From Protoeuglena noctilucae (lineage: Eukaryota): 64,000 bases of DNA. The notes under the pieces are model-generated. The model was not told the origin of the DNA, ran no database searches, and saw only the letters and a program-made list of their open reading frames with translations. Shown piece after piece: positions 1 to 63,200 of the stretch. Every line of letters begins with the position of its first letter. Position 1 is the first letter of the stretch. The stretch lies in contig OY253668.1 of NCBI GenBank assembly GCA_958009085.1, positions 1,612,001-1,676,000 on the forward strand, in the 5' to 3' direction. Position numbers and translations under genes: made by a program.

Positions 1-2220
1 TCCGCGCCTTCATGCTCGCAGTGACCGTGAAGGAAGACGTGTTGACCGCCTTGAACACGTCGCTCTCCGCTCTCTTCTCGAATTCCAGCCGCTCTCTGCA
101 TGCAGTCACGAGGTGGGTCACAGGAATGCGCGTGCTGACAGCGCCGTTGCCATCAAGCCCAAATCCATATCGTGCTTGCCTGAGGTTGAAGGCCGCGTGG
201 AGGACGTCGGCACCGAGCCGCTTGGCCAGCTTGGGCATATCCACCTCAAAGAGGAAGAAGCAGCGGTTTGCAGCGTGGTCGGACGTCCGCGGCAGCGTAA
301 ACAACTGGACGTAGCCGCCGGCCATCATCCGGTAGAGTACCTCCCTCGCCTCCTTGAGAGGAATCATGGCTGAGTCAGCCACAGTTTTCTGCTCTGCACG
401 AGATCGAGGTCAAGATGCCGGTCGATATGCTCGCAATGACGCTCTGTCCCCACAGCGCCGGGGACCGGGGACAGTCCCCCCCACGTCGCATGACGCTGCC
501 TCACCGAGGGCGCCCCGGTAGTTGAGGATGCGGAAGATGCGCAGTCCGGCCTGGCCGAACCGCCGCAGAATGGTGCCATCCAGCTCGTACATCCGAACCC
601 AGTCCACCAGCCGTGAGATGTTGGCGTAGTACGTCGTGCCCCCCGCCCTGGTTGCACAACAGCATAAGACCGACATCGGCACAAACACCGTCTCATACCT
701 GGTGATGCCGCCGGGCGCAAGCAACAGCGAGCGGCAGAGACAGGCGTCCGCATGCCCCGGGTCCGGCACTCACACATCGCCCCCCCGCCCCACGTGGTCC
801 CGCATGTCCATCGTCATCTTGTTGAGCTCTTCCCCGACCGTCTCGGCCGTCCCCTCGGGCGCCTCGCCCCTTCTCTCCATGCTCCGGCACGCCTCCCTGC
901 ATGGGAGGCCACAGGATGAGAGGCCGCTGAGCGAGGGCTGCACGATCGAGCAGGAACGACGACGTCCTCGCGGGCGTGGGGATGAATGCCACGCGACGCA
1001 CCGTATGACAGTCAGCGGCAGGTTCGCCGTCGTGTGCTTGCGCAGGTTGTCCTCTCGATTGCTGAAGCGGTCCACGGTCAGCAGGGCGGCCACCGCGTTG
1101 GCCTCCGCGTCCCCGATATGCTGCCGCGCGGCGGCAACCAGCGTCTCGTCGCGCATGATCCTGCGCACCGGGGCGGACCCCAACATCTGAGCCCTGGGTG
1201 CCGTGCACCTGCCCAGCCCGCCGCGGACCATGCCACCCTCCCCAGCCGCCGCTCCGCGCCGCGTCCGAGGTCCCATGCACCTCACCGGTTGAACTCGTCG
1301 ACATTGACACGCCAATGCACCACTTGCGGGCGCACGTCCGGGCTCTGTCCCACCGCCACGACCGCCTCCAAGCTGTCCCCCGCCGGCCTCTTGGAACCGG
1401 CCATTCGAGCGCCCTTGTCCGCGACCCCGTCCGCACCGTCCACGGACGCAAACCTCTCTCGCTCGTAGTCGACCAGTGCCTTGCGGTGGCCCGCCTCCAT
1501 CGGGTCCGCGATGACGTTGACGGTGCGCGAGCGCTTGGTGGGCACCGAGGCCGGGTGGGGCGGGATGGCGACGTCCGGCAACGTGCAGGGCGGGACGCGC
1601 TCCACCAAGCGGCTCGCCAACAGGCTCTGGAAGGCATCCAGGCACATGCGACGGCGCGCATCGGTGCGGGACCGCAGCAGCGAGGGGTCCGCGGCCTCCT
1701 CCTCCTCCTCCTGCGCCGTCCTGATGGCGTTCGCGACCGTCGCGATGAGGGTGCCGTGCGGGAGGCGCCCGTTCATCATCAGCGCCTCCACGAGGGCCTC
1801 CGCGGCTGGGCCGAACCGCTCCAGGGCGATGAGGAGGAACCTGGGCCACCGGATGGTCAGTCGAAGCCGGTCCCCCAAGCCGCGATACACGAACCATTGC
1901 TGGACGCCCTTGGAAGTCTCCTCGGAGTGCTGGAGCGCCTCCACGAAGTTGTGATGGATCAGCACGGCGAGGGAAAGCTTGCACTGCTGTCCGGTGAGCC
2001 CTGCGCTGGGTCTCGGCGGCTCGCGCGTCAGAGCTCGCCACATTGTACAGTTACATGCGGGCGCTCGGTCTGTTCAGGCCGCGAACTCGCCAGACTCGCG
2101 AACGATGTCCTCCAGTCGTGACGTGCCGCCCATCAGGACCGTCCGGGCGACCTTGGCCACCATTGGCCCGAACAGCTCATCCGCGATGGACACCACAAGC
2201 CTCAGGGCGTTCGGCTCCAT
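1..2220 (-). CDS. RPC3: RNA polymerase III subunit RPC3/C82 (multi-exon, 3' end runs off window start)
   Basis: Spliced translation MEPNALRLVVSIADELFGPMVAKV...LAVLIHHNFV...WPRFL...LMMNGRL...WRVNVDEFNR...RIFRIL...LEQKTVADSAMIPLKEAREVLYRM...FFLFEVD matches the POLR3C/RPC62 pattern. First intron 2001-2090 is GC-AG. Confidence 0.88.
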
Positions 2221-3152: not shown

Positions 3153-5505
3153 ATGCTGAACCGAGCTTCCCCATCCGCAGGCTCCATCTGCGGGTCGCTG
3201 GCGTCTCGTCTCGAGATGAACGCAGCCGTGGGCGTCCGGGCGCACTGCGCCGCTGGCCCCGAGTCCCGCGCATGCAGCAGGAGGTTGTGGAGAGTGGGTT
3301 CCGTGCACTGCGCTCCGCGCAGCCCCGTGCGCACGCGAGCCGCCCAGGGTGAGTGCCACAGCCGAGACGCCATGCTTCGTGTGACCCAGGGCAGCTTATG
3401 ATGACCCGCCGCTCGCGATGCCGTCGCGCAGACGAAATCCTGGCCCAGAGTGCCTTCGACAAGCTCTGCCTGGACGGGGAGAGGCACTACTCGACCGTGT
3501 CAGGTCAGGCTGCGCTCGGCATCACGGCATGCAAGGCAGCGCCATTTGCTGGGGTGGACTGGATCAAGCATCCATGCGCTGGCTTGGAATGCTGCCCACC
3601 CCGTCGCCGGTCTCGACAGTGGCTGCCCCGTCTGTCTCTGCGCAGTGCACGGTGGCGAGCGGGGTGGCCGTCCCCGTGTGTCTGACTCGCTGACGACGCC
3701 CATCGTCCAGACGTCGACCTACTCGTTCAAGAACACTGCGGAGCTGATCGCGTACCAGGAGGGCAAGTACGGGTCGTTCGAATACGGCCGGTATGGGAAC
3801 CCGACCACGAAGGTGAGCCTGTTCACTCATGCGGACCCTGGCATGCCCACTCCCTTGCCGAACGCCGCCAGCTGGGCGGTGGTGAGCAAGGCACACTTTC
3901 TCAGCCTCTCAGCTGCCAACGCAAATAGCCCCATTTCTTGGGCTAGGGCGGTCCCAGCGCGGCTCGGCAGTGCGCATCGCTTGCTTGCGGTCCACAGGCG
4001 GCGGAGGAGAAGCTGCACGTCATGGAGGGCGCGGAGGACTGTCTCATTTCTGCCTCCGGCATGTGCTCCGCGACGACCATGCTCCTGGCCCTCGTGCCCC
4101 CTGGGGGCCACATCGTGACCACCACGGACTGCTATCGCCGCACGCGCCAGTTCATCCAGACGCTCCTGCCCAAGATGGGGATCTCGGCATCTGTCATCGA
4201 CCCTTCCGACCTCAACGGCCTGCAGGCGAGGAGGCCTGGGGCGGCGGCGCTGCTGGTTGGCCCAAGCTAGCCGCGAGTGTCCCTCTTGTGCCGAGCCTTG
4301 CGCCTGCACCTCCGTCTCCCGCAGTCGGCGCTGGACAACCACAACGTGACCCTCTTTTTCTCCGAGTCCCCGACGAACCCCTACCTTCGCTGCGTCGACG
4401 TGCCGCGCATTGCGGAGCTCTGCCACGCCAAGGGTGCCATCGTGGTCATCGACTCCACTTTCGCCACGCCCATCAACCAGCAGGCGAGACCCCCTCACGC
4501 TCTGTCGCACTCGGTTCTGCCCAGCTGCGCTTGCGGCCGTCTCGCTGACCGCCGCCCTACTGTCGAACGTGCATGGGGAACCACCGCCCACGCAGGCGCT
4601 TGCCCTGGGTGCGGACCTGGTGCTGCACTCGGCGACCAAGTACCTCGCGGGCCACAACGACGTGCTCGCGGGGGCCATCGCGGGCAAGGCGGACATCGTG
4701 CGGTCGGTCCGTGCACTCCACAACGTGCTCGGCGGGGTCATTGGTGAGCACTGCGCCCGCGTCGGGATGCCAAGCCGCCTCCATGGCATCCCGTTGACAT
4801 CCTGGATGCACCTGCGCGTGTTTGCAGACCCCCACGCCTCCTACTTGGTGCTCCGCGGCATGAAGACGCTCGGACTGCGGGTGGAGAAGCACAACAGGAG
4901 CGCCATGGAGATCGCGACGCGCCTCGAGGCCCACCCCCGCATCGCCAAGGTCCACTACCCGGGCCTGGCCAGCCACCCCGACCACGCCATCGCCAAGGCA
5001 AGAGTCTGGCGTTGGCACAGCGAGCCCGTTTGATGCGGCCCCAAAGATAGCGAGTTTCAGCCCCAAGCGCCGTAGGACTGTTAGCGTGCTGAGCCTGTCC
5101 CGTCCCATCCCGCTTGCAGGCTCAGATGTCCGGCTACGGCGGCGTCATTTCATTCGAGGTGGACGGCGGACTGGAGGAGACGGCGGCCTTCATCGACAAC
5201 TGCCGGCTGCCCTACATCGCGCCCTCGCTGGGCGGAGTCGAGTCGCTGATCGAGCAGCCCGCTGTCATCTCCTACTGGGACCAGGGCCCGGAGGTGAGAA
5301 GGTGGATTGGGCGCATGCGACGGGGCGCGCGGCCTGCTTTCTGCCGGCAGCGGCCGCCGGATCCCCGGCTCGTGCTGCGTGCGTGCAGAAGCGCCGCGAG
5401 CTGGGCATCAAGGACAACCTCGTGCGCTTCTCGTGCGGCATTGAGGACGTGGAGGACATCTGGGCCGACATGGAGCAGGCCCTCCACGCCGTCTTCAAGC
5501 ACTAG
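3153..5505 (+). CDS. CGS1: Cystathionine gamma-synthase, plastid-targeted (Cys/Met metabolism PLP enzyme), 9 exons
   Basis: Transit-peptide-like exon 1, then VHGGER...LTTPIVQTSTYSF...EYGRYGNPTT, SASGMCS, FFSESPTNP, IDSTFATPINQ, HSATKYLAGHNDV (PLP lysine), YIAPSLGGVESL, LVRFSCGIED. Stop TAG at 5503-5505. Confidence 0.93.
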
Positions 5506-5602
5506 TAGGGCGGCGCGATGTGCGGCAACGCCGTGTCTTCGTCCCATTGAACCACTGGGCCGGTTTCTGTTTCAACGTGCGCATGTTGGGAGACCGACAC
5601 GG

Positions 5603-6686
5603 TCAGCTCGACTTGGCGGTCTGGAGCTTGCGGAGGGCGGCCATGGCGCGCTCCACGTGCGCCTCCACGTCAAGCTGGGAGTTGAAAACCAACACCACCT
5701 TGCCCTCCTTGGAAATGACGTAGGTCTGGCGGCCTGGGAGGAAGCCGAACATGTCCGAGGGGACACCGAAGCCCTTGCGCAGCGCGTTGGCCTCGTCCGC
5801 CAGAATGCTGCGGGCGAGGTCAATACCTCCTCGAATGAAGCGCACCCCGCACCGCACACGCGACCGCCAAGAGCTGTGTCTGCTGTGCCGTTGCGACCAC
5901 GTTGTACTCACGTGAATGGCAGGCTGTGCTTGCTCGCGAACGCCTCCTGTGCCTGCACCGTGTCGCCCGAGATGCCTACGACCTCCGCGCCCAGGCTTTG
6001 GAAGGCCTGGTACTCGTCCCGGAATTTGCAAGCCTCCTTCGTGCACCCGGGCGTCTCAGCCTGCACACAGGACAGCATTCGCAACCGTCTCGCCTCCCCA
6101 CGCACGGCCTGCCTTCCAAAACCTCCCTACAGCCCTAGCCCGCCATACCTTTGGGTAAAAGAAGACCACGAGGGGCTTCTTCCCCTGGAACTCGCTCAGC
6201 GACGTCATGCCGCCCTTGCTGTTCTTGAGCTTCCTGAAGTAGTCGGGGTAGTCCGTCAAGCGATCCCCCTCGCTCAGGGCCGCGCGGACCGCCACCGAGC
6301 GAACGGATGGACGGCTGGCCTGGACCGGAGCAGGCAGGCGCCTGAAGCTGCCGATGCGGGACGCGACAGGCCGCACTGCGGGAGAGCGAACCAATTAACG
6401 GAGCTGTGCCCGGTGCAGGGAGGCATACGGACGACTACCACCCAGCCCTGCGCAGGGCGGCATGCGGGCGACAAACGCACAGCCTGCCAATTTTCCTGGT
6501 CCGGATGAAAAGCCACGACGATGGCCCCCACAAGATGTCGTTATGCCTGATGTCGGTCAGAATGGCAGTAACCGACTGGAAAGCGCATGTGGGATGCCCC
6601 ATGGCTTCCAAAACGCGGTCCTCGAGGGGCGGCGGAGCCCGGTGCGTGTGCTCACCCGCAGGCCGCGCCATCATCGCGGACGCCAT
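5603..6686 (-). CDS. PRXQ: Peroxiredoxin Q (BCP-type), chloroplast
   Basis: Transit peptide MASAMMARPA|VRPVASR...VRA, then VVFFYPK|AETPGCTKEACKFRD (CxxxxC PrxQ motif), GISGD, LPGRQTYVI. Confidence 0.93.
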
Positions 6687-7408
6687 CGTTGAGTCCCAAG
6701 GATAAAGAGACTGTGTAATAACACGAAAACCTTGCTAGGAAGACTGCTCATGGATGCATCCTCCCATTGGCGAAGTCAGGGGCGCCCACGACGCAGCCAG
6801 ATCTCCGCCTGCCAGAGAAAGCGCCGAGCTCACGAAAGGCGCCACTGACATGCATCCTTGGTTAACAGCCGCGCTCTTTTCGTGTGTATTCACCCTCGGC
6901 TCCTGGCGACCTCGCCTATTGCGTAGACTGCGACGGGGGGCATGGCACAGTATGTGGCCTGCAGGCCCGCGCCGGCCAGGTGACCCCTGGGCGCGCAAGC
7001 GCTTGTGGTGCAAGGATAGCTCCGCGCCGAGTGGATGGCGCGGATGGGCTGGATGGCCCGCGATTGGCCCGCTGCCTTGGTATCAGCCATGCCCCCATCC
7101 ACACCCCTGCCCAGCTCGAACTGTCTGTGCTGACAATTGTGTTTATGGCTTATCGAAAACCCCTTCCCTCGGCGCTCACGGTGGGCTGGGTCGTCTCGAC
7201 CCGTGCCCACCCCGCCCCTGCTCGCCTAGCCTTGGCATGCATCGGCCTTTACTCTCTCATGACCGTGTGGTCCCGCGTCGGCGCCGATGGGCGACGGCGC
7301 GGGGCTGCGGGTTGCCAGGCCTCACGTCCCGTGGTGCACGGTTCCCGACGCTTTTGCTGCGCCGATGCCGCGGTGCCCGGTGCCCGGACGTGCCCCTGCG
7401 CCGTACGA

Positions 7409-8560
7409 ATGCGCGTGGGTGCTTGCCTTGCCGTTACTCGGGGCGGGGCGCCTCGGACCGGACACCGCCCCGCGGTCCTTCATCTGTCGCAAGCCTGCTC
7501 GAGGGCCCCCGGTCTGGCATCGCGCACCTTCGCCCGTATCGCATTCGGTTCCCGCAGGTTGGAGGTTGGCAGGGCTGCCCGCCGGGGGACGGCGCTGATC
7601 GCGCGCGCGAGCCCCGCGAAGCCGTCCCTGCCTCCCACCGTGTCCGAGACGAAGGCCAAGTTCTTAAAAGCCTACAGCAAGCCCGTCAACCCCATCAGCT
7701 CGGCCATCGTCAACGAGCTGCTCGTCCAGCAGCACCTGTGGCGCTACCAGAAGCGCTACCAGTACGACGAGGTGTTTGCGGTGGGCGTGTGCTCCATCTT
7801 CGACCAGGTCCTCGAGGAGCTCCCGGAGTCCGAGCAGAACGCCCTGTTCAAGGCCTACGTGACGGTGAGGCGCGCCGGGGCCAGGCGCCCGCGCGACCTG
7901 CCCTCCCCGCACGACGCCAGCTCGCTGAAATCTGGGTGCAGCGCCGCGCGAGCGCCCCCCGACGCCCGATCCGCCTGTCTGCAGGCGCTCAACGAGGATC
8001 CCGCCAAGTACCGGGCGGACGCCAAGCGCATGGAGGCCTGGGCGTCCGAGCTGGCGAATGCCTCGGGGGTCCAGCCCGATGCGTCGGGCGATGAGGGGCA
8101 GAAGACCCTGGGGAAGATCGCCGAGCGCATCCGCGCAGGGGATTTCTACTACACCCGCTTCTTCGCCATCGGCCTCTTCCGGCTCCTCGAGGTGCGGAGG
8201 GCTCTCTACTGTCCCTAGCGGGTTGTGCAAAGATGGCCAGCGAAATCATGAGCTATGCCACCCTTGCTTTTGACCCATCCAGAGACTTTTTGATGGCTCC
8301 TTTCCTTCCCTGTGATGCAGCTCGCGGGCGCCTCGTCTCCCGAGGCGCTCAAGTCGACGGTGGCGTCGATGGGCGTGGACTCGGCAGCCGTCACGCGTGA
8401 CCTCAACCAGTACAAGAGCATCCTATCCAAGCTGAGCCAGGCCAAGGAGATGATGAAGGAGTTCCTGGAGCGCGAGCGCCGCAAGACGGAGGAGCGACGG
8501 GCGGAGAAGGCGAAGAAGGAGAGCGACGCGGGGTCCAAGAAGGAGGAGGTCAACGCATAA
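7409..8560 (+). CDS. THF1: Thylakoid formation 1 / Psb29 (start uncertain; 7145 also possible)
   Basis: PPTVSETKAKFLKAYSKP...ELLVQQHLWRY...DPAKYRADA...FYYTRFFAIGLFRLLE...RDLNQYKSILSKLSQAKEMMKEFLERERRK, preceded by an Arg/Ala-rich transit-like segment. Confidence 0.92.
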
Positions 8561-8878
8561 AGGGACTGGGAATGAGAGATAGGGGAGGGGAGCGTGGAGG
8601 GCGACGGCGCCACGAACGAGGAGGTGGGGAGGGTCGCAGGGCGGGGGGCGCGACGGGGCAGCCTCTGGGCCGCCTTGCGACATGTGGACGGGGGTGATGG
8701 AATTTGATGCAAGGCCCTGTCGACACCAGTTGCATGGAGGTCGTCCATGCGATGATGTGCATCTTGTGGGGGTGAACAACCCGAGGCAGCCGATTTCTAG
8801 GGCTGACATGAGGGTGAGTATGACCTGCCCTCGCTTGAATCAAAAGGGAGATCACTGCATTCACGAGCGTCGCCTATG

Positions 8879-10805
8879 CTACCCCTGCCCCTCTCCAGGT
8901 CCCTCTAGCGGCTCGTGGCCCAACCGCCACAGCACGAGGGCGTTGACGGTCCATGGCTGGCCCGGCAAGGCGTCCACAGTCTCCCGCAGGGAGTCACTCC
9001 CAGACTCGTCGCCGGATGACCCCGTATCTCGAGCACTCCCGCTCGTCCCCTGTGCCTCCCCATCGACGTCCCCCGCCCCTCTTGTCCCCAAACCCATTGG
9101 GTACCTCCGCATCCCGGAGGCCGTTGCTACCAGGGGCAGCCATGGGTGGATGGAGACCCCGTTGACCGTATCCTTCGCCACGCTGCAAGCAGCACGCCGG
9201 GAGCAAGTTAGATACTCGCGTGCCGGGGAGAGGGTGGAACTGCGTGCAATCCAACGCCCTCCCTTGCCGCTGCGATGGTGGGACCAGGCGCCCGGACGCG
9301 GCAGCCTCGCCTGCAGCAAGCGACCTCGCTCCCATCCCGCAGGTCAAACCCGCGAAGGCACCCGTCCTCCCCGCCCGTCACGAGGTGCCGCCCGGCCGGC
9401 TCAATGTCAAACTCCATACGCTGGTTGGTGCGTGGGGTGACGCGCTGCAGCACGTACAGACTCTGCCCGGCGCGGACGTCCCAGCAACGCATCTCCGCAT
9501 CCGCGCGGGCACCCGTGTACAAGTAGTGGCCCTCTCTGCCGAACAGCACCTGCGTCACGCCGCCCTTGTGACCCTCCAGCACGACCTCTGCGGGCGCCAC
9601 CCCAGACGAGCTGCACCTGTGCGTCGACTGTGTGCAATCACAGCGCACCGCGCGATGGAAGACAGGAATGGCCCCGGCTGAGTGAGTCAGCCACTCACCG
9701 GCCTTGCCAGTCCTTGCATCCACCACCGCCGCAAGGCCTCCGTAGGTGCCGATGGCGACCACCCCTGGGTCGACCGGCGTGACCCCAATCGTCGATACGA
9801 TCCCCGGGACGCCTCCCCCGTGTTTCCGCCTGTACATCACCCAAGCCTCGCAGCTCCCTCCGGGTCGTTCGACGTCAAAGACACGCACCTCGTGCTTGAG
9901 CCCCGCCATCACGCGGGTGCCACAGGCGCTGCGGGCCGACAGAGCGCTGATGATGGTTTCGAGCATCTATCGCCACTGCTGTCCGCACACGTCACGACGC
10001 GTGACGTACCTGAACCCCACCGAGTAGGCGGCAGTGGGGCTGTCCGTCCGGTCATGGGCCCGGTAAGACGCGCGCAGGTGGCCCGTGACGGCATCCCACA
10101 GGTGCACGGGCAGGCCCCGCGCCGTGGATGCGAGGCAGCACGTGGCCGGGTCGTGCGGGGTCATCCCGGGGTACCACGCGTAGGAGTAAATGGTTTCTCC
10201 CTCCGCTGCGGGGTAACGACGGCTTGTTGCTTGAGATTGGTATGTTGCTCGCCCGGAAGAGCGTGGGGCATGTGGCACAGCACATCACCCGTTCCACGCA
10301 CCGATGGTCAGCGCTGCAGACATGTGCCTCGGCGCGGGGCTGTGCGCATCGGGTCCTGCCTGGTCCTCCGCGCCGTCAGCTGCGTGCATGCCACGCAAGG
10401 CTACACCTTCAGAAAGCCGGCTTGAGGGCTGGCTCAGCTGCTCGTGCGCGCCATGGAGCTACTCGCCTGGGCTCAGGGCGTCCTCCGGCAGGTCGTACAA
10501 CCGGATGGCCCCGTCATCCGCTGCGGCTGCCAGGCAAGCGCCATCCGGCGACCACTGGCAGCCCTTCAGGAAGTTCGACTGGGGCGTGCGAAGCGTGAAC
10601 TGCGGGAGCGCGCGCATGGCGGGCGATGTGCTGGCTGTGGGCCTACCAGCGGGCCCCTCCCGAGCGCCTCTACGTCACAGCAAATCCGGAAAGCCTCTCT
10701 CCCGCCCCGTCTCACCAGGTCTCCGTCAGGGCCGCGGAAGTCCTGCCAAGCCGCCCCTATCGCCCGCGGCAGCGAGTCCAGCCGCAGGACTTTCCACCCC
10801 GACAT
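8879..10805 (-). CDS. WRAP53: Telomerase Cajal body protein 1 (WRAP53/TCAB1) WD40 protein
   Basis: NFLKGCQWSPDG, EGETIYSYAWYP, PVHLWDAVTGHLRASYRA, GHKGGVTQV..YLYTGAR, TNQRMEFDI, DTVNGVSIHP..ATASGMR are family-typical motifs. Two GC-AG introns. Confidence 0.9.
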
Positions 10806-11346
10806 GGCCTCATCGCTTGCGCAGCGCACTGAGACGAGCTCGGGCATCGGAAAGCGTATTTCTAGACCTGCCTTGGGATTACCCTTGCAAGAGCGGCGTC
10901 CACCGCTCTCGAGGGCCTGGCCGTCCCCGCGCGCCCTCCATTCTCTGATCTGGGACGCTGATGTCACCGGGACCCACGTCCCGCCGCGGCCGACCTCCTT
11001 GTGCTGCGGAAAGCGCCTACCGTCGCATCGCCGCACACGACGCGCGGGGAGACAGCTCGACACCGCTTTGGCACTTGACGTTTTCAGCGGAGCCAGGTGC
11101 GGCCGTCGACAGTGCGCATGGCTCCTTCCCGGCGACCCTCGAGCGGTGGAGTCCCCCGCCGCGGAGGGAAGCCTTCCGGGCCCGTTTTGGTGTAGACGAA
11201 GCGCGTGGCTTGCAACCGGGACCTTCTTCGGCCTCCCTGCAGGCGGGGTGTGGTGCCGAAGTTCTCTCCCCTTCTCCGGGCGCTAATCGAGCCCTCTGCG
11301 CGGTCCCCCTCGCCCGGGCATCGGTGCTATCCGTTCGTTGGGAAGA

Positions 11347-14300
11347 ATGATATCCGTTCGCCCGCTGGAGAGGGCGTCGGCCGGCCAGCCGGGCGCGTCG
11401 ATGCCGGTCCAGGGACTCCCCAACAAGCCAGGGCGTCATCGTCGCGACGGCCCCCCTCGGGGGACTCGGCTGCCGGCAGGTGAGGCGATGAAGGCTCGAA
11501 GCTTCACTCGCGCCTCGCAGCGCCCGCCAGGGGCCAGCGCGGTGCGGGAGGTCGGGCTTTGTGGGGCGCATGCGCGTTGGGCCCCGCCCTGGTCGGCGAG
11601 GCCGTCTCAGCGCTTTCCAACCGTCGCGATTTCTTTTTCTGTCTTTTGTTGCGCGATGGCGGGCGCGGCGGTGCGCGGCGGGCGCTGTCGTGGGCGATGA
11701 TGACCCCGTCATCGTGGGGCTCCCGCGGAGCATCGCCCGCGACCAGCGACGCCGGCGCCGGAATGAGCCGCCCGCCCCCTCCGACCGCCGCAGTACCATC
11801 CTGGGACAAGCTGGCCGACGCCACGGAGGTCTGGCGCGCGCGGGCCGCGGCGCCAGCAGGGCCAAGTGCAGCGCCTCCCGCTGGGCGGTTTGCCGGCGAG
11901 CGCCCGCCGTCGCCGCCCCGAGGATCGCACACGCGGCGCGCGGCGCATCATCCGTCCGCTCCAGCGACCTCGCACATCGCGATGGCCGGCCGCGATCCGG
12001 CCTACTCCCACCCGGGGGTGGCCCCGGAAGATGGGGCGGTGGTGTCCAAGCCGCTCCCCGTGCAGTCCGCCAAGTCGTCTCCTGCGCGGCGCCCAGGCGC
12101 TGAGGGTCAGTGCCGCGTCTGCTTCAACCTGCAGTACCAAGTGCAGTGGGGGCAGAGGGTCCGGGTCATCGGTGGCCCGGCGGCGCTGGGCGGGTGGGAC
12201 CCCCACGGCGGCCTCGACATGCACTGGGCTCCCGGCGACAACTGGACCGTGGAGGCCAAGGTGAAGGGGCTTTCTCGGTGGCGTGCGTCCGCGAGCCCGC
12301 GGATAATGCAGACGGGTCGCAGGCGTGACTTCACTTCACGTCACGCAGATTGCTCAGCGCTTGCCGCCTGGTGCCCGCAGCTGCCTGCCGGGGGCGTGGT
12401 GGAGTACAAGTACTTAGTGATCAACGAGAAGTCGGGCCAACCGACCGCGTGGATGTCGGGGAACAACTGCGTGCTGGCCATTCGCGCCACCGAGACGGAG
12501 GTCGAGGTCTTTGACAACTGGGACGGCGCTCCGGGGGCCATGGTCGTGTCCGGCACGCAGCGGACGACGCGGGAGGACCGTCTGGAGAAGTGGGCCAACG
12601 AGATGGCGGACGCGTTCTTAGAGCAGCGCGCAGAGATCCGACGCAGCCGCGTGGAGTTGGCGTCGACTCAGGCGAGTGGTGGCTTGGGCTCCCCTTTGTC
12701 AAACGCGCGGCTGTGCTTGCTCGCACATCGCGACTCTCCACGCTTGCGCTCGAGGAGGAGCCCCGGCGCGGCCTGTCGCGCAGCACAGGGTTTCCACACT
12801 GGGTCGAGCGATGGTGTCCCTCGCTGCATCACGCCAGCCTTTTTGGACCTTGTAAAAGCGCGATTTCCTCATGTTTGGTCCCTCTTTCTTCGCTCGTTGC
12901 AGGAGGAGCTGCGGCGCGCGCAGATGGAGATGGCCCAGATGAAGTCGGAGCTGGCGCTCGAGCGCGGGCTTCGCGAGGCTGCGGACCGCAACCTGGCGAC
13001 GTTACGGTTGCAGTACGAGGACCTCCAAACGTCGATGGAGATGGTGGTGTCGCGGCAGGACGGGTCCGTGGCGGCGGCGCGGGAGGTGTTGGCCGAGATG
13101 GAGGACATGGACGCTGCGCCCTCCGGTGGGGCGGGCGACCTGGTGGGCCTGATGCGCGAGATGGAGGAGGAGGAGGAGGAGGAGGAGGAGGAGGAGGAGA
13201 TGATGGTAGCAAGGGTCGTTGCTGACGCTGAAGAGGTTGCGTACGAGGGCAGCATCGATGACAGGGCGGTGGAGCTGTTGGAGTCTCGCGCATCGTGGGA
13301 GAAGCGGGCGCGGGAAGAGCAAGCGAGGGAGGAGCAAGCGAGGGAGGAGCAAGCGAGGGAGGAGCAAGCCCGAGAGGAGCAAGCCCGAGAGGAGCAAGCA
13401 AGGGCGGAGCGTGCGCGGGAGGAGTCGGTGGTGGCGCCGGTGGCGGTGCCGGTGCCTGCTGCGGGAGGTCGCGGCGGGGTGGCTCGCCCTGGGCGGGCCG
13501 AGGAGGAGGCTGGCGCGGGTGGGGCGTGGGGCGCTGGCATCCGTGCGGGCGCCATGAGCATCCTCGCGCGGCTCAAGAAGGCCAACGAGGCGATGAAGCG
13601 AGACTCGCCTCTTGACGACGAGGACGACTTCGGCGGTCCAGTCGGGACTGCCGGGGTGGCTCCGAAGGGTGTCGGGAGCACCTACGGGGCAGCCGCAGCG
13701 CGCACCGACCTGGCTGGCAAGTCGGATGTCGGTGCGGAGGCGGAGTTGGGCAGCGAGGCGGAGGTGGGCAGGGAGGACGAGGCGGCGATGGAGCCTCTGG
13801 TGACGGCGGAGCAGGGGTCTGAGGCAGACGAGGCCGCGCCTGAGGCCGGGGCGCGGGAGAGCGACGAGTGGGACGAGGCGGCGGAGGCCTTCATGACGGA
13901 CGTGCTGGAGGTGTACGCGGAGGCGGCGGACGATGACCAGGGCGGCGAGGGTGACCCGTACGTCGATGACGAGTCGGCGGGTCGCAAGGGCGATGCCGAG
14001 CTGGTGACTTCGGGATCGACGCAGCCCCTCGGTGAAGAGGAAGAGGAGGAGCTGCTCTGGGAACGGAGCCTGGGTTCTGCGGGGCAGCGGTCCGGGGCGC
14101 CGCACGAGGGCGACGGGGGGGGTGCGCCGGTGCGGCCGGGGGGTGGTGCCGTGGGTGGGCCCCGCCACGAGGACCGCGGAATGGTGGAGTCTGCGGTGCG
14201 GGCGGAGGCGTGGACGTCGAGGGGGGGGACTGGGGCCGGGGCTGACGCCGCGTGGGTGGAGCAAAGGGCGGCTGGCGGGGCGGGGCAATGGCGCGCGGAG

Positions 14301-20379: not shown

Positions 20380-20403
20380 CAACCCAGACCGCGATACTCT
20401 TCT

Positions 20404-53387: not shown

Positions 53388-54253
53388 CGCAGCGCAGCGG
53401 GGCCTCGGGCTTGCCCGGCGGAGCAGGCGGTCAGAGACGGAATGAAACGTGGTTGCGTGCGCGCAGAGCGACCTCGGGCGCCCTCAGAACGGCGCTGTGG
53501 GATGCGTGGCGGATGCAACGACTTCAAGCCGCGCCTTCGTCCAGGCGCAAGGGGAAAAGCCAAGAGAACAGCGCCGAGACTACCATGCACACAGGACGCC
53601 AGCGCGAGAGAGCGGCAATTTGTTCGGCGCGCGCGAGGAAAGTGCGCTGCCCACCCTCGTCTGATCCGCCTCGCTCATCACCCTTGACGGCCGATCCTTC
53701 ATAGCCTCTTTCGGTATGATATTTGTCCACCATCGCTGCCAAAGCGACGTGTTGAGCGGTTTCGCTCGTGTCAGAAAGGTCGGGCGGAGGACATTGCCAC
53801 CGTCTGCACCACCGTTAGTGACAATGATGCACGTCTTGCCTCTCGCCGCTGGGTCGGCAGCTCTTTCTCTCTCCACCCATCCACACTTGTCTCTCGCGCT
53901 GCGCGCCGTCTGCGGGGTGGCACAGGGCGCGAATGTCTCGACGATAACCCCCCGTATCTGTGCATTCCTCGGGCGCCGGCAGGCGAGCCGACGCGGCGCT
54001 GATTCGCGCCGTCACGGGTGGGCACCGCGAAGGTGCGGAGCAAACAGAACGTGGGACGTAGCCACTACAGTTTGCAATGCACGCGCGACCGGGGCTACGA
54101 ACTTCTTTGGGGCAACTGGATAGGCCCCTGGCTCCCAGGCCCGTCGACCGGGCGCGTGGGCCGGGTCGTGTCACCCGATGCGGTTCGCTGCGCGCCGCTT
54201 CCCGCAATCGCTCCGGCCCCTCGTCGCTCGCAGAGCCGCGTGCATGCGTTCCA

Positions 54254-57200
54254 ATGGAAGGCATCGACCATGAGGCGGGGCCTGGGAGCGGGTGAGGGTC
54301 GCTTGCCACGGCATGCGACGCTTTGGGAGCATTGCGAACGCCGCGTCTGCGCGAGATCCCGCGCGCACGCGCGGAAGTGATCGAGGGCGTGCATTCCTCT
54401 GCGTCTGCGCGTGGCCCCGTCCCCGCTGGGCCCCGCGAAACTCGCCACACCCTCGTGACGCAGGGCGCTGCCCCGCGCCAAGACCTCCGCGCGCGTGGAG
54501 GGGCCGGGCCCGGGGCCAGGGGAGCGCGAGGACAGCCTGGAGCTGCACGTCGGCGAGGTCACGTCCTTGAAGATGGAGGCGAAGCGCGCCTCGCTCATGG
54601 TGCGTCCCTTGTGAGCCAACCTTGTATCGCGCGCGTGGCCGCCTCGCCGCCAGCGACGCCCGATATCTGGCGCGCAGGATGCTCTCTATGGCGTCATGTA
54701 CACGCTGCTCAAGGAGAAGAAGGAGCAGAGCTGGAAACTGGAAATGCTCGACGTGGCCATCCACTTTGTCCAGCTCTACCTCCTCGTCTACTCCCAGACG
54801 GCAAGTCGGGCAGGGCGCGAGCCTGTCTTCCATAGTTTGTTCCTATCGTGCCTTGCGACTGCGCCCAACCTTCCGGCTTGCCGCCGGTGGCGACGCGCAG
54901 CGTCTCTTCGCAGCTCCTCGCTGACTGTTGAGCGCTCCCCTCCCGCAGTTCCACTGGGACTGGGGTCTCCAGGACAGCCACAGGAGCGAGAGCGTCATTC
55001 ACGGCGTCGAGCTGGCGGAGATCGTCAACCTCCTTGAGGCGCTGGGCTACCAGTCCTTCCTCGTCGTGTACTGGGTCCTATTCTCGGCCCTGGCCCTGGT
55101 GAGACGCCAAGAATCACTTTGTACTTGCGTTTTCACCTGCAGCGGCCGCACGCCCGCGGCAGCGACACCTGCTGACGTCCTCTCGACCCTCCCCCAATTG
55201 CAGTCCCTCATCTGCGCCTGGGTCGCTCAGAACTTTAAGACCGGCAAGTTCCCCTTCATCTGGCCCATCAAGCTGGCGCGCGTGTTCGTCGGCTTCTTCT
55301 TCAAGACGCTGGACATCACGTCGCTTTCGTGAGTCCCGCGCAGCACGTGGCTGCCGAGCTTCGTGTCCCCGCACCCTTCCTGCCCGCGACTGCCACAAGC
55401 CCGTCGGTCATCCGTGCGCCCCTCCCCGCCCGCAGCGTCTTCATCATGGCGCTCAGCTGCCAGATCCACCCGCCACCCGGCGAGCCCTCGCACAACCGCA
55501 TTTACCCGGACAAGCGGTGCGACCGCGCCCCGCACCTCTTCATCCTGGTCTTCGCCGTGCCCTTCGCGGCCCTCACCATCACCATCGGCTGGCTGCTGGC
55601 CGCGGGGACCACCGAGATGGACCCTCTCAACCGCGAGCTCATGGCCGTGCCCTTCCCGGAGGCCTCGACCAAGATCTTCGTCGCGGTGACGGGCATCGAC
55701 GTCCTCAGCGTGTTCCTGCGGGGACACGGCCGCACGTTCGGCGTCACCACGGCGCTCCTGTCCGGCTACATCCTGTACGTCCTGCTGCGATGGATCCCCT
55801 ACTACACGCGATGGGTCAACCGCCTCATGGTGAGGCGCAGAAGAATCGCCGACTCCTCCGCAGCGACCCGCACCGCGAGGAGGGCGCCCTGCGCCTGGGC
55901 TGTCGTGGCAGCTCCTCCGCCGTCGCGACCGTCGTTTCTCAAATCAGCCGGCCCATCGCTGCGCACCAGGCATTGTTACGAGTATCTTTCATGACTCAGT
56001 CGCCCTCACCTCCGCAGTGTGCCATGTACACGGGCCTCTTCTTCGCCGCCCTCTGCCTCACGGCGCTCGAGACCGTCCCCGGCGCCCATCACGTCCGGCA
56101 GGCGTCCATCGCGGGCGTGTTCGGTGAGACGCACCTGCAACCGCGCTCACAGTTTCGCCCGCAGCAAAGTCACAAAGCTGCACACCGTCTCAGGCCATCC
56201 CCGCCTGACTTGCGTGTTACTGTTCGCCCTCCCAGGTGTGCCTCCGGCCATCCTCCTCGGCTGGACGGTCATGTCGGCGCGGCAGTGGATCCCGGCGCAG
56301 AAGGCGGCCGCGGTGCTGCAGGCCTCGCAGCCGACGGCAGGGACGGCGTCACAAAGGGACGTGAGGCCGTCGCCCGGCTCGGTGACGTTCGGCAACGCGA
56401 GGGCGTCCATCACGCTGGCCCACCGCACGCGGCGCAAGAGCGGCGACGTGCCCTTCGCGCGCTCCCGCGCGGGGAGCATCGACGCGCGCGCCGGCCCCCA
56501 GCCCTTCGCCCGGTCTCGTGTCGGGAGAATCGACGCCAGGGCGCCGGTGCCGCGGGCCCTCATGGCGGGGCCCAGCAAGGGCGCGCGCGCTAAGGGCAAT
56601 GAGGACGACATCAACGACTTTGATCTGCCGCCCGCCCGGCCCCGGCACGGCGCACTGAGCTCGCACGCGCCGGAGGTGTCGGTGCGGTACAAGGAGTCGA
56701 ACGACGAGGTGGAGCACAGCAGGGGCCACGGGGCGCGGGACCCGACGGCGACGCTGCGCAAGTGGGCGTCCGCGGCGGTGGTGGCGGGCGGCCGCCGGTC
56801 GTCCGTGCTGCTGCGCGCGCTGTTCCAGAACGAGCGCGCCAGCGCGGCGCACACGAGCACCGCGGAGCCCACGAGCAAGCGGGTGGTCTTTGCGTCGGCG
56901 GCGGAGGTGGAGATCGCGGCGCGGGTCATGCGCGAGCGCGACGTCCACGGCAACCTCAAGGAGAGCAACCTGATGGCGGCGCAGCGGCTGCTGGCGATGG
57001 GCCTGCGTCAGTTCCCGGACAGCCCGCAGCTGCAGCTCTTCGTGAGCCACTTCTTCCTGCACGTGGGCAAGAACCACCAGAAGTCGAGCGCGCAGCTCCA
57101 GCGGGCCCGGCAGCTCCCCATGTCCCTCGGCCTGAGGTTCCAGGTCTTTTGTCGCGACCGCGAGGCGATGCAGGCCGGCGCGGACAGCGGGCTGGGGGCC

Positions 57201-60200
57201 GAGGGGGCCATGGACTTGGTGACGTACGTCGAGTTTCAGAACAACTTCCAGGCGGCGCAGCGGAGCCACACCCAGGCGCTGCGGGCGACGCGGGAGGTGA
57301 GGGCGTGGGGATGGCGGGGTGGAGGGCTGCGCTTGGTGCGGGTACTGGGCGCCCTCGCATGCATGCGGCAGCGTCTCGCTCGCGCGGCTGACATGGCACA
57401 GCGCAGGCGACTGGGTCTGACGTGTGGGTCGTGCGTCTTCTGACACCGCAGTTCTGGCGCGGCCTGCTCCGGACGGACATCAGCTTCGAGTCCCTGACGA
57501 GCTCGGCGTCGCGCATCTCCGAATTGGCGCTCGCGGCGGCCCAGGTCTTCCGAACGATGCTCCGGCAGCACCCCAGCAACGTCAAGCTGCTTCGCGCGCA
57601 CGGGCGCTTTGTGAGCGAGGTGGCCAACGACCCTTGGCGAGCCACGCAGGAGTTTGAGAAGGCCGACCGCATCGAGGATCGGCAGGCGGAGGTGAGGGCG
57701 GCATGGGTGGGCAGGGGCAGGGGCAGGGGCGGTGAGGGTGGTGGGGGTGCAGAGGTGAAGGGGAGGAAAGGGGTGCGGTGGGGTGGGGTGCCAGGAACAT
57801 GGGGTGGAAAGGGTTTTTTGAGGTGCAGAGGGACGCAACGGATGGGCCTGTGAGCTACTTTGTATCAACACTCGACATCCCGTCGCACCGCGCCCCTGTG
57901 CACCACTGAAAGCCCTACCTATGCCCCCGCACGCAGGCCCGTCGCGTGAAGCTCTTGACGGAGGTGGCGAACGCGAGCAAGAACCCGCTGGACGCCGCGA
58001 ACGCCGAGGGAGAGCCCGGGACGCAGCACACGCACCACACGGCCGCCACTCTGTCGGGTCACGGTGGGGCGGGGTCCAAGTCGGTGGTGGACACGATTGG
58101 GCTGGACGAAAACGTGAACGACAACAAGGACGCGGTGATCGTCATCACCGAAACGGGCATCGTGCTTATGACCAATCGCCTCTTCAACAAAATGTTCCGG
58201 TGAGTAGCGGGGCATGAAGGGCAGTTGGTGCATGATGACAAGTTGCCAGGATGAAGATGACGCTCGTGCGCTGCCACCCTTCGCGCATCTGCTGCTGCCG
58301 CCCATTGCTCCGATAGACGAGCCACACGTGCCGTCGCACCCTTGCTTTGGCAAGCGAGCGACACGCGCCCCACGTGCACACGCAGGTACAAGACGGGAGA
58401 GTTGGAGGGCGTGAACGTCTCGGCGCTCATGCCGGCGCCCTTTTCGCAGCAGCACAACGGGTACCTGCGCCAGTACATGTCGTCGCAGCAGGCCCGGCTC
58501 TCCAAACGCTCCCGGGAGGTGGTGGCGCTCGACAAGTCCCGAGGCCTCTTCCCGATCAAGATCCGCGTCACGCCGCTGCCCCAGCCCGGCGGCGGCTGCC
58601 ACTTCATCGGCGTCATCCACAAGCTGGAGGAGCAGGACCTCAGCAAGGGCGAGCTCTGGCTCACCCAGACCGGGGCCGTGCTGTGCTGTTCCCCGGGGTT
58701 CGAGCGGCAGTTCGGGTGGACGTCTGCCGATCTCGCTGGCAAGGGCGTCGAGTTCATTGCAGCCGGCGAGGGCGGCGCGGCCAAGGTGAGACTCGCGCCC
58801 TGGTGGGGGGCGGTGGGTGGGTGAGGAACATAGTGCAGGTGCGTTGGGCACGCCGCAGCAGTACTGGGTGTGCTTGCCGCCCTCTCAGCTGGAAATCGGG
58901 CTGCCGTAACGCGCATTCACTCTGTTTCATGTGCCCTGGTCGCGGCAGGCGACTCGCCTTGGTTGCCGAATCATGTGTGGGTGACATTGTGGGACGATGC
59001 GCATCCATCACAGCGTCCCCTCGCATCCCGCGCGCAGGCCGAGGTGTGGGGTTTGGAGGTGGCCCGGGCGGTGTCCTCCGTGACGCAGGCCTTGGAGCTG
59101 GGGACCGAGGACGAGCATGCGTCCGTGGAGGACTACGAGGGTTCGTTCGAGGCCGTGCTTCGGCACAAGTGGTCCCGGCAGTCGCTGCACGTGCAGTGCG
59201 CCGTGCGGCTGGCGGGCACGGAGACGACGCCCGTGGTGGTGGTCACGGTGGAGATTGACGATGTCGACTGCAGCGCGTGCCTGGCCAGCAACCTCGATGG
59301 CCAGCTCAAGTACGCATCGGCCGGCGCTGAGAAGCTCCTGGGTTACGTCCCGGGGACGATGCTGTCGAAGAGCATGACCGTGGAGCAGATCATCCCGGGC
59401 CCGGGGGGCCACCTGCACGCGGCGTTGGTGCGTGGGTTCTTCCTGAAGGGGGAGTCGGTCCCGCCGGACGTGCCCTGCGCCCACGGCCACATCGTGTCTC
59501 TGCGGTCCAAGAAGGGCTCGCTGGTGCCCGTGCGCATGCGATGGAAGGCGCACCGGGCGGGGAGCGAGGTGCGCGGAGGTGGCGGGGGCAGGCGGGTCTT
59601 GTTGCTGGGGTGTCGCGGGGTGTGTATTCGTACCATTGGCATTGCAGCCATTTGCTTGGTGCGAGGGACCCTCGCTGCTTCACCTGCCGCCTCGTCTAAC
59701 TCCTGACGATAAGCACGCCCTTCTTGCTACCCTTGTAATGCATCGCTACCCCATGTCGTGCGTCCTGCAGACGACAATCGTGACGACGTTGATGCCGGTC
59801 CAGCGCGAGTCTCTCAAGCATCCCTGGGGCATCAGCGACCGCGGGGCCTTCCCGGATCGTCAGATTTGCCTCCGCTTGCTGGTCGCTGCGGACGGGACCA
59901 TCGCTGCAGCCACGGACGGGTTTGGGTTCTCGGCCAAGGGCCGCACGGGTGAGCGGCGCGGGGATGATGGCAAGATACGCGTGGGTGCAATCGTGCTTCG
60001 CTGCTTGACTGCTTCGCGTTTTGTGGATGGCCATGCCTGGGCTGACACAGTTGGGCTTTGGCTGCCCAACCCCCGCGTGCCAGTGACTGCTGTGCCGGTC
60101 GGGAGCTGCAGAGCGAGTCAATCCGGCACGATCAGATTTGTCACGCTCTCCACGCGCTCGCCCGCAGGTTCTGTCTTCGGCATCAATGGTGATGACCTCG

Positions 60201-63200
60201 TGGGCAAGACAGCGGACGCAGTGGTGTCGATGATGGACGCGGTCGTCGGCAGCGCACGCCAGTACAACTCACAGGCGAGAAATGGGGCCACTGTAGATGG
60301 ACCATGGTGCAGGGTCGGATGGACTGCACAGCACAGCACGCACCGTCTTCCACAGCATGATCCGACCGATCCCGCCCGCGCCACCCCCGCAGGTCACGTC
60401 GCAGGAGATCCTGGCATCGTTCCTGCCACGCCTGGCCCAAAAGCACCTGGACATGGGGTGCGCATCGTACCGAACAGGCGTGACGTGCCCTCACCCCAAG
60501 GAGCGGGGCGCCACCGTCACAGTTCCCGGCCGCCTCGTCGTGGTTCCCGCGGACGTTTACGGCATCGACACGTGGGCGCTGGTGGACGCCGGGGTCCTGT
60601 CCGCGCGGCAGGGCAAGGACGCGCGACGGGGCCGGATGTACGTCGTCGAGTGCTGGAGCGCCAACTGGCTCACGGGGGAAGTCAGTATGAACCCCGACCG
60701 CACAATCTACAAGATGGACCACCACTTGGCGCTGCTCACGGGCAAGACGGACGCGGACCTGGTCGGCAAGCGGCTGGACGACCTGTTTAGCCCACCCGAG
60801 GCGCTCGCACGTGCCGTGCCGGACCTCAAGGCCGGGGCGGAGCGCGTGGGGCTGCCGCTGGCGCATTTCGACAGCAGCGAGTGCGCGAGCAGCCTGTCGG
60901 TGCAGCAGGCTCACCGTGGCCGGCCGGGCCTGCACGCGCTCGTGCGCGGGGTGTTTGAGGAGGCCGACAAGCCCATGCACGCCCTGCGGCGCGTAGAGAT
61001 GCTCGCGCTGCTGAGCGACGAGATGATCAAGGCCGAGGAGGCGGCGATCGCGGCGGGGCAGAAGTCCCCCAGGAGCAGCACGGGCGCGGGGTCGGTGAGA
61101 GTGCGCGCGAGTGACGGGTACGCACGGTCTCACGCGGGATCGATCAAGGGCTCCGTGAAGGGCTCTGTTATGGGGTCGTTCAAGGGGTCAGTGATGGGTT
61201 CGGTCAAGGTCAGCGGCAGCGACGGGGCGCAGGCGCTCGGGGGTGCGGAGGGGCGGCCGGGACACAAGCGGCATCACAGCACTGACCGGAGCAGGGCCGG
61301 AAGCCGCGCGGGCAGTGTGGCGGGGCGCTCGGTGGGCAGCGGCGGCGGCGAGGAGGCGCCGTCCCGGGCGGCGAGCGTGGCGGGGCGCAATCGGCGGGAG
61401 TCACATGGCGGGGTGGCTGGGGACGCTGCGAGGGTGCGGCGCGGGTCGCACGCGGGCGTCCCGGCGACGACGTCCGCGGCCGTCGAGTCCCGCCCGCGCA
61501 CGCGGCGCGAGTCGCGCGGTGGCATGTCGACGGGGCATGGCGCGCGCGTGCCAGAGCCCAGTTTCGGGGGCAGCTCTGTGGGGAGCATCAGCCGCGACAA
61601 CAGCGGCCGGGACAGGGTCCATGGGCAGGGCGAAGCCAGCGAGCGAGGGCCGGGCAAGGAGCGCCGCCCGCACATCCCTTCCATTGAGCGAGGCTCCGGC
61701 AAAGAGCGCCGCCCTCCCGTGCCCCACCCGCGGCTGCCGGCCTCGAGCGTCGCCGCCAGCGACGACTCCGGGCCGCGTCCGGAGGTCCGCGGCGCGCAGC
61801 TGCGGGGTGCGCTGGAGCGGGTGGCGCAGTCCCGGGGAGCGCCGGACGAGCGTGGGGTGGAATCCGACGCGTCGCAGCACCGAGGACCCCATTCTAGCGG
61901 TCGCCTTCGGGTCGACTCGGACGCGAGCGGCATCTTCCCCGCCTCGCGCCAGAGCTCTGAGTCGGGAATGCAGCGGCCGTCCAACAGCACGGACTTCTTC
62001 AATCCCGAGTCCTCGCTGCGAGGGACGGCCCACCGGGGCGGCCCGCGGGAGCCCAAGCGCCGGGTCTTTGGGGCCGGGTTCCGGTCATTTCGACGATTGA
62101 CGAGGACAACGTCAGCCGCGCCAAGTGGCAGGGGCAGCTGCTGCCAGCGCCGGAGGTGCTGATGGCGTCGGGCGGGGAGGGTGTCACGTCAGGCGACAGC
62201 GCAGTGGTGACGAGCGGGGGCGGGGAGGCGGCGGGGCCTGCGGGCGAGGGTGGCGGGGAGGAGGAGCGGGAGCGGGCGCGGCTGATGCTCAAGGCAACGC
62301 TGTCGCAGCGCGGCATCCTGAAGCGCAAGGTGTCGTTCCGGGGTGGGAGGGGCTTCGGTCTGGAGGCGCCTTCGGAGGATGCGGGGGACGCGGACGGTGC
62401 ACACGCGGCGTGGTGGTCACGGGTGCGGGGCGGTGGCTCCGGGAGCGAGAACAGCGACGGGGCCGCGACGGAGGTGACGGCTGTGGCCGAGGAGGATGAC
62501 GAGGATGACGAGGATGAGGACTATTCGTCATCGGAGGGAGACGACGACGACGACGATGATTATGCGCGGAGCATCATGGGGGCTCGGTCGGACGTGGGGA
62601 CGCTCTTCACCCGGGGCCGCAAGAATGAGAGCCTGAGCGACAGGTCGGACAAGGGCGGGCGGGGCAAGCGCAAGGGCGCGGCGCTGGACACGCTGCGAGC
62701 CGAGCGCTACCAGCGCCTGCGCAAGCTGCTGGTGGCGGCCCAGATGGCGACGCTGGGCATGGCCCTGCGCCAGCGCACGAACATGATCGTGGCCGCGGCT
62801 TTGGCGGTGCAGGGCGCTGTCTTCGGGGCGCTCACTGCCGGGTGAGTGGGACGCGGGTGAAGACTGGGGCCACTGGCCAGGCACTGCCCAATGCATGGCC
62901 CAATGCACCACGGTGGGGTTCACGAGGGCACCCCTCAATGGCTCACCTCCGTACGCCTCTCAACCCCCGCAGTCTCATGATGGGCCGTGCCAAGTTCACG
63001 ACTGCCGCAGAGTCAGGGGCTGCGTCTGGGTACTCTGCCGCCATCGCTGCGGAGACGAATCGCATCACCACGTTCCACGAGCCCACCGGATGGGGCAAGG
63101 TGGGTGGCAGATGCGTGCTTCTATCATGCCGTGTCATCTGCATTCCCGAGGCAGGGTTAGACGCTGAGAAGGGTGTGGGAGGCAGCCAGACCTCGCTGGC

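Follow-up and report, generated by a model that had tools for sequence, protein, structure and literature searches.

The window analysed here is a 64,000-nucleotide (nt) stretch of the Protoeuglena noctilucae genome (GenBank assembly GCA_958009085.1, contig OY253668.1, positions 1,612,001 to 1,676,000 of the forward strand; positions below are counted from its first letter), and the subject of this report is a set of its introns that begin with GC instead of GT and end with AG (GC-AG introns). The G+C content of the window is 67.4%, with each 4-kb bin at 64–72%, a value in the range (at least ~65%) of the GC-rich algae with abundant GC-AG introns (PMC3033335); G+C at third codon positions (GC3) is 84.7%, and the introns have 64% G+C. 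Single-exon matches to Pfam families were obtained for Syja_N, Tubulin and GNAT acetyltransferase, the best named matches of a PASTICCINO1-like gene are land plants, and THF1, PrxQ and CBM20-like proteins were recognized by eye, not by family search, in the predicted translations. The host genes look viridiplant-like and intron-rich (37 joints in RNA-derived contigs over 19.8 kb; ~100–140 introns in coding sequence (CDS) over 64 kb), unlike those of the intron-poor Micromonas or pelagophytes.

A first-pass annotation, made from the letters of the window, listed 19 GC-AG introns between positions 2001 and 60392. All 19 intervals indeed start with GC and end with AG on their strands; 17 start with GCGAG and two (4998 and 54801) with GCAAG, and an exonic AG precedes 17 of them, the exceptions being 2001–2090 (after TG) and 54801–54948 (after CG). 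Independent support was found for 13 introns, i.e. six by joints in RNA-derived contigs, two by a spliced open reading frame (ORF), P0001, and five by continuity of a profile or homologue across the junction, and none of the 19 was contradicted. In the following, donors are written with the exon in lower case and the intron in upper case, separated by a slash.

Introns removed at GC donors in RNA

Sequencing reads were screened with positions 4200–13900. Marine metatranscriptomes carried 0.2–0.49 of the sampled words, a fraction that would be expected of runs containing exons only, and four runs under one organism label, whose kind is not on record, carried 0.98–0.99. Contigs from four marine metatranscriptome runs (two studies) were aligned to positions 4100–23900, chosen because 12 of the 19 introns fall there. 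This gave 37 joints, 15 of which are listed individually, and the results below refer to these 15. Six of them coincide with annotated GC-AG introns and the remaining nine are GT-AG. Within the alignment slack all six resolve only to GC..AG, with no GT..AG placement, in keeping with the claim that GC donors and not nearby GT donors are used. Three of the six lie on the plus strand in a gene for a Cys/Met-metabolism pyridoxal phosphate (PLP) enzyme, namely 4226–4324 (cag/GCGAGG, 99 nt), 4484–4595 (cag/GCGAGA, 112 nt) and 4998–5119 (aag/GCAAGA, 122 nt); each was found in contigs X1, X2 and X5, and splicing of all three gives an open frame for this enzyme. The others are 12672–12902 (+) in the CBM20-like gene (cag/GCGAGT, 231 nt; X1 and X2), 16282–16395 (-) in a SAC-domain gene (gag/GCGAGT...ACAG, 114 nt; X1 and X2, on the minus strand) and 20136–20214 (+) in a small gene (cag/GCGAGT, 79 nt; X1, X2 and X5). 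The introns starting at 9183, 10380, 18004, 18337, 22339 and 23559 fall outside the 15 listed joints, which speak neither for nor against them.

Two further introns, 41199–41347 (+; cag/GCGAGT, 149 nt) and 42119–42224 (+; cag/GCGAGC...CCAG, 106 nt), belong to the PASTICCINO1-like FKBP/TPR gene. With 100% identity, the single-exon query of this gene matched P0001, a 646-aa ORF on a 4,346-nt JGI contig; this ORF crosses both junctions and is identical to the spliced model except for an absent N-terminus and a 3-aa difference. Since retention of either intron would shift the frame and introduce a stop, yet P0001 is uninterrupted, the JGI contig appears to be complementary DNA (cDNA)-like. The 3-aa difference indicates that a neighbouring weak GC call of our gene finder (described below), 41525–41617, is wrong and that the true intron is GT 41516–41617. 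The six contig joints and the two junctions crossed by P0001 show that introns are removed from mRNA exactly at GC..AG. Among all introns verified at the RNA level, 8 of 22 are GC.

The same contigs yielded other observations on gene arrangement. Single contigs span the PLP-enzyme gene (+) and the convergent, spliced PrxQ-like gene (-) at 5389–5911, and the occurrence of joints of both orientations in one record implies that the 3' ends of the two genes overlap or abut. Loose poly(A) ends occur at 8851 and 20449. RNA joints support two long GT-AG introns, 6376–6655 (-; 280 nt) and 6980–7557 (+; 578 nt), that the CDS model missed; they probably lie in the 5' untranslated regions, or are the first introns, of the PrxQ-like and THF1-like genes, a divergent pair that apparently has a short promoter region in common. 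A stop-free frame of 1,308 codons at 11484–15410 (+) covers the RNA-verified introns 12261–12380 and 12672–12902, both of which have a length that is a multiple of 3, the latter being also stop-free. At such a G+C content, open frames are no guide to exon structure. At 13153–13212 (+) the CBM20-like gene carries a tandem in-frame (AREEQ)n repeat beside a poly-Glu run, and the reads seem to be cut there.

Profile, homologue and gene-model support

Five introns are supported by continuity of a domain profile or of a homologue. In the RPC82/RPC3-like gene, 2001–2090 (-; ctg/GCGAGT...GCAG, 90 nt) separates an upstream exon matching positions 2–36 of the HTH_9 profile (Pfam) from a downstream exon matching positions 39–61; its retention would leave an in-frame stop, and the model preference over the next-best local model (delta) is 5.1. 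In the SAC-domain gene of 16282–16395, 18337–18457 (-; cag/GCGAGC, 121 nt) lies between exons matching positions 3–139 and 158–222 of Syja_N (Pfam), and a piece of contig X1 stops exactly at 18458 while 383 letters of the record are left unplaced, which fits this intron. The gamma-tubulin gene is interrupted after codon 9 by 23559–23758 (+; cag/GCGAGC, 200 nt), whose retention would shift the frame; exon 1 encodes 9 aa (MPREIITLQ), and exon 2 begins at position 7 of the Tubulin profile.

The intron 9183–9310 (-; cag/GCGAGG, 128 nt; delta 3.5) lies in a WD40 gene, and the spliced protein aligns without gaps over the junction (residue ~335) with an uninterrupted ORF of L001–L003, which are related metagenome contigs with 74% G+C. 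The metagenome scan with the WD40 exon found no cDNA of this organism; its matches were relatives whose identity did not exceed 58%. The orthologous ORF of the relative (L001:1289–2131, L002:7514–8356, L003:9461–10303) is uninterrupted, and the matching part of the window gene (residues 97–342) holds five introns, which indicates that the relative is far poorer in introns in this gene. Finally, the junction of 60275–60392 (+; cag/GCGAGA, 118 nt; frameshift if retained), in a large PAS-like gene, is crossed at residue 1308 by seven homologues (P0017–P0023), six of them without a gap. The best match in the search of representative proteins, P0016 (621 aa), is an unspliced stop-to-stop genomic ORF (60297–62162, +) whose first 31 residues are translated from this very intron, and it says nothing on splicing. 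P0016 is a case of intron-derived residues in a public protein collection for this organism.

The remaining six introns are predicted from the gene model. In the same WD40 gene as 9183–9310, 10380–10466 (-; cag/GCGAGT, 87 nt) would leave an in-frame stop if retained (delta 12.9, no alternative found); it falls in a variable, gap-rich stretch of the alignment to the relative, which is too divergent to inform on it. In the SAC-domain gene, 18004–18140 (-; aag/GCGAGG, 137 nt; delta 9.1) would cause a frameshift and a stop if retained, and PDB and Pfam searches with its downstream exon were uninformative. A PDB search with four exons matched the 65-aa SAC exon to residues 203–265 of yeast Sac1, resolving no junction, and gave only chance matches to a plant-virus coat protein for the adjoining exon; a homologue search with longer proteins, covering exons 17188–18003 (-) and 18460–19002 (-), gave no match. 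In the GNAT acetyltransferase gene, retention of 22339–22424 (-; cag/GCGAGG...GTAG, 86 nt; delta 14.1) would likewise cause a frameshift and a stop; the downstream exon matches positions 70–116 of the Acetyltransf_1 profile (Pfam), and the upstream exon has no match in the Pfam and PDB searches. Retention would also shift the frame at the three others, predicted in a large low-complexity gene (35538–35610, -; cag/GCGAGC, 73 nt; delta 7.8), in another WD40 gene (38731–38833, -; cag/GCGAGT, 103 nt; delta 4.6) and at 54801–54948 (+; acg/GCAAGT, 148 nt; delta 5.9), the last having the weakest donor context of the 19 (score 2.4).

Share and context of the GC donors

The share of GC introns was estimated with a self-trained, two-strand dynamic-programming gene finder that combined a three-periodic coding model of order 2 with weight matrices for donors and acceptors in which +2 was masked. 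With GT and GC donors allowed, 140 CDS introns were predicted, 98 with GT and 42 with GC (raw share 30% GC). All 19 annotated introns and 13 of the 15 listed RNA joints were recovered, the two misses being the 280- and 578-nt introns. When only GT was allowed, the finder either substituted a shifted GT intron for each GC intron or did not splice there at all. When all four G[N] donors were allowed, the finder picked 88 GT, 38 GC, 18 GG and 8 GA, and with GT plus a single decoy it picked 28 GG or 20 GA. The picking of decoys shows that the finder calls too many weak donors other than GT, which makes the raw 30% an overestimate. The model score was 3336 for GT only and rose by 243 with GC, compared with 77 for GG and 55 for GA. 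At a donor-context score of at least 5, there were 16 GC, 13 GT, 2 GG and 1 GA donors, and at a score of at least 4 there were 20, 34, 5 and 1, respectively. The 19 annotated introns correspond roughly to the high-scoring GC set and are favoured over the next-best local model by 2.5–14.1 nats, a range also covered by the RNA-verified GC introns. Subtraction of the decoys (38-18 GC, 88-8 GT) gives a rough share of ~20%, and the 19 introns amount to 16–17% of the 110–120 counted by hand in the first-pass annotation, which put the share at ~15%; 15–20% is a plausible estimate for the window. Gene boundaries of the model are unreliable, and the intron calls cited here were checked separately; neighbouring genes are probably fused in the models 20404–23082 (-; GNAT acetyltransferase and an RRM/ABT1-like gene) and 53502–64000 (+; a multi-pass membrane protein and the PAS-like gene).

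Donor heptamers were also counted independently of any gene model. In comparison with order-2 Markov simulations, AGGCGAG (30 copies, 18.8 +/- 3.6 expected) and AGGTGAG (23 copies, 9.4 +/- 2.8 expected) are enriched, whereas the decoy heptamers AGGGGAG (16 vs 15.4) and AGGAGAG (8 vs 9.9) are not.

We compared the 19 GC donors with 87 stable GT donors. The GC donors have C at -3 in 79% (GT donors, 45%), A at -2 in 89% (51%), G at -1 in 100% (93%), G at +3 in 89% (95%), A at +4 in 100% (67%) and G at +5 in 100% (91%). Information outside +1/+2 amounts to 10.1 bits in GC donors and 5.4 bits in GT donors, and of the 7 positions of CAG/G.GAGT (the dot standing for +2) a mean of 6.00 are matched in the former and 4.61 in the latter (Mann-Whitney p = 5.6e-8). 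Since the first-pass annotation was possibly biased to consensus-like sites, the test was repeated on the joints shown by RNA, where 6 of 6 GC donors and 1 of 9 GT donors have the full context AG/G.[GA]AG (Fisher p = 0.0014). Among predicted donors, the context AG/G_GAG (+2 left blank) is shared by 18 GC and 17 GT donors (15 GC, 16 GT, 2 GG and 1 GA when decoys are allowed), and outside it 81 GT donors stand against 24 GC calls, which are mostly unreliable. These data show that GC donors are almost confined to a near-perfect (C)AG/G_GAG(T) context, and that C is there as frequent as T at +2. The suggestion that stronger exonic pairing with U1 small nuclear RNA (snRNA) compensates for the C holds in so far as GC donors are closer to the consensus than GT donors, but the gain is not exonic alone, A at +4 and G at +5 being present in all 19.

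In other respects the two kinds of introns are alike. Polypyrimidine content before the acceptor (0.646 in GC and 0.643 in GT introns) and intron G+C (0.646 and 0.640) are the same; median lengths are 114 nt for GC introns, which range from 73 to 231 nt, and 129 nt for GT introns. CTRAY branch-like motifs occur near the 3' ends of several introns, whereas neither a U12-type donor, (A/G)TATCCTT, nor the branch box TCCTTRAY was present in any of the 19 GC or 87 GT introns. These motifs suggest processing by the major spliceosome. When the 140 predicted introns were all compared with one another by blastn (word size 9, E <= 1e-3, same strand), no hits between different introns were obtained, and the printed intron sequences have nothing in common beyond splice signals. 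The window contains no Rfam family, no snRNA gene and no tRNA.

Origin of the GC donors and comparison with other algae

A C at +2 gives a C.A mismatch in the helix formed by U1 and the 5' splice site. We consider it probable that the GC-AG introns of the window are ordinary U2-type introns that arose by GC-biased T>C substitution at +2 and are tolerated only in strong donor contexts. A persistent AT-to-GC bias, due to mutation bias or GC-biased gene conversion, would turn the T at +2 into C, and this change would be nearly neutral only where pairing with U1 at the other positions (-3 to -1 and +3 to +6) keeps the helix together in the presence of the mismatch. Because the change would be tolerated only in such strong contexts, GC donors would pile up at the strongest sites and be purged elsewhere, and no altered spliceosome would be needed. 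GC pressure is a plausible driver in view of the 67% G+C and 85% GC3 of the window and of the correlations published for algae (PMC3033335, PMC4028052).

Several points weigh against this explanation. The causal step, GC-biased substitution, is inferred from published correlations. Outside the top species, G+C content correlates only weakly with the GC-AG share, and Micromonas RCC299, with 64% G+C, has only 2.7% GC-AG (both PMC3033335), which means that G+C content alone is insufficient. As for the introns themselves, 6 of the 19 are predictions of the gene model, and the 23 weaker GC calls that the gene finder made besides the 19 were left uncounted; three of these are contradicted, 41525–41617 by P0001 and 6376–6915 and 7411–7557 by RNA joints. 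The tight consensus of the 19 may partly be a matter of ascertainment, GCGAG being easier to spot by eye. The RNA comes from natural populations and not from the assembled strain, so that the donor base in the transcribing cells is not directly seen, and metatranscriptome contigs cannot reveal minor isoforms. The RNA-level share of 8/22 is biased upward, because the stretch and the gene were selected as rich in annotated GC introns.

A different account would be that the spliceosome of this lineage has changed, in U1 snRNA or its modification, U1-C, the U6 ACAGAGA box or Prp8, that +2 is read loosely, and that the high GC share is a consequence. In favour of this are the equal frequency of C and T (18 vs 17) at +2 when the context is best and the tenfold difference in GC-AG share between two Micromonas of similar G+C content, for which base modification or proteins of the U1 small nuclear ribonucleoprotein (snRNP) have been proposed (PMC3033335). 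On the other hand, GC donors still need a near-perfect context, as a standard U1 would demand, and the U1 5' ends are canonical in the algae examined (PMC3033335). We regard this account as unlikely. The proposal of the first-pass annotation that recognition at +2 is relaxed, taken as a change in the machinery, finds no support. Inspection of the U1 5' end, a check that the first-pass annotation suggested, has already given a negative result in related cases: in Aureococcus and two Micromonas species the putative sequence was reported to be identical to the consensus (PMC3033335). Comparably doubtful is a narrower version, in which +2 is effectively free (T or C) in the optimal context (18 GC vs 17 GT) owing to an early-spliceosome component (a U1 modification, U1-C, or U6/Prp8 contacts) that lacks discrimination at +2. 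If true, the reading of +2 could be dissected in this intron-rich green alga as a natural system, and lost discrimination would help to explain the tenfold difference in GC-AG share between sister species of equal G+C content.

It is very improbable that the GC donors are a reading artefact, in which chance GCGAG copies near frame breaks were taken for donors and the true donors are nearby GT. GCGAG does occur 400 times on the two strands of this 67% G+C DNA, the gene finder takes GG/GA decoys 26 times when allowed, and it made three weak GC calls that are wrong. But all six annotated introns testable by the listed RNA joints are exact, none with a GT placement, seven others are independently supported, AGGCGAG is enriched and the decoy heptamers are not, and the score gain with GC (243) exceeds those with GG (77) and GA (55). 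The evidence from joints, ORF, profiles and homologues rules out such an artefact for 13 of the 19 introns.

Introner elements are known in Micromonas pusilla, a species with a 22% GC-AG share. That the GC-AG introns of the window are copies of a mobile introner family with its own GC donor, their consensus being due to common descent, is less probable still, since among the 140 introns there were no blastn hits between different ones and the GC introns vary from 73 to 231 nt; such a family is ruled out at the blastn sensitivity used. There is hardly any chance that these are minor-spliceosome (U12-type) introns with GC-AG ends, a reading favoured by the non-GT start and nothing else and ruled out by motifs, since no U12-like donor (G/A-TATCCT) or TCCTTRAY box occurs in the 19 and their donors fit the U1-type consensus.

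For annotation, the consequence is that gene finders restricted to GT would mis-model about 1 in 6 introns here. The rule is also seen clearly in the window: tolerance of C at +2 is limited to donors whose other positions fit the consensus.

GC-AG introns of animals and plants make up ~1% of introns, are U2-type with an AG acceptor, and have a stronger consensus elsewhere in the donor than GT introns. The window differs from them in a frequency 10–20 times higher and in having G instead of A at +3 (GCGAG against GCAAG), its GT consensus being GTGAG. Although the first-pass annotation called this frequency exceptional, GC-AG shares of 8–56% have already been published for GC-rich algae (PMC3033335, PMC4028052). 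Among 61 genomes, the three with the highest G+C content have GC-AG shares of 39.6% (Aureococcus), 22.2% (Micromonas pusilla) and 7.7% (Chlorella sp.) (Iwata & Gotoh 2011, PMC3033335). These algae resemble the window in G+C content (66–70% there, 67% here) and in a GC-AG share far above ~1% (~15–20% here), and two of them are, like the organism of the window, green algae. The authors likewise ascribe the share to G+C content and call the origin of abundant GC-AG introns an enigma (PMC3033335). The same paper raises the question why the GC-AG share cannot be predicted from G+C content by itself, on which the present data bear without settling it. M. pusilla differs in having 0.91 introns per gene (PMC13213038, Table 1), the organism of the window being intron-rich, and the prasinophyte genomes listed in genome papers are intron-poor (PMC13213038, Table 1; PMC12301720), unlike the window. 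For prasinophytes besides Micromonas we found no report of nuclear GC-AG frequency, a weak negative that covers in part the top-ranked papers only; the word 'splice' is absent from the main text of the genome paper on a GC-rich (69.8%) marine picoalga (PMC7455551) and of a mutation study on that species (PMC11884799).

In Emiliania (Gephyrocapsa) huxleyi, also a GC-rich (65%) marine alga, 56% of 241 curated junctions are GC-AG, and nine GC junctions were verified by reverse transcription-PCR (RT-PCR) (Feldmesser et al. 2014, PMC4028052). As in the window, transcripts confirm the GC donors and the AG acceptor is kept, and the phenomenon has been ascribed to G+C content; GC donors are, however, the majority there (56–60%; PMC4028052), whereas in the window they are a minority confined to the strongest contexts. 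Moreover, E. huxleyi is a haptophyte, and the genes of the window look viridiplant. The figure closest to that of the window comes from pelagophytes, for which GC-AG shares of ~14–17% in Aureococcus strains and ~14% in Pelagomonas have been predicted and ascribed to high G+C content (bioRxiv 10.1101/2024.10.30.620910, 2024); these figures derive from gene models, and the pelagophytes are, unlike the window organism, intron-poor stramenopiles with 0.14–0.92 introns per gene (bioRxiv 10.1101/2024.10.30.620910). The phenomenon itself is not new; what the window contributes is one more case, an intron-rich green alga, to the few GC-rich algae in which abundant GC-AG introns have been described.

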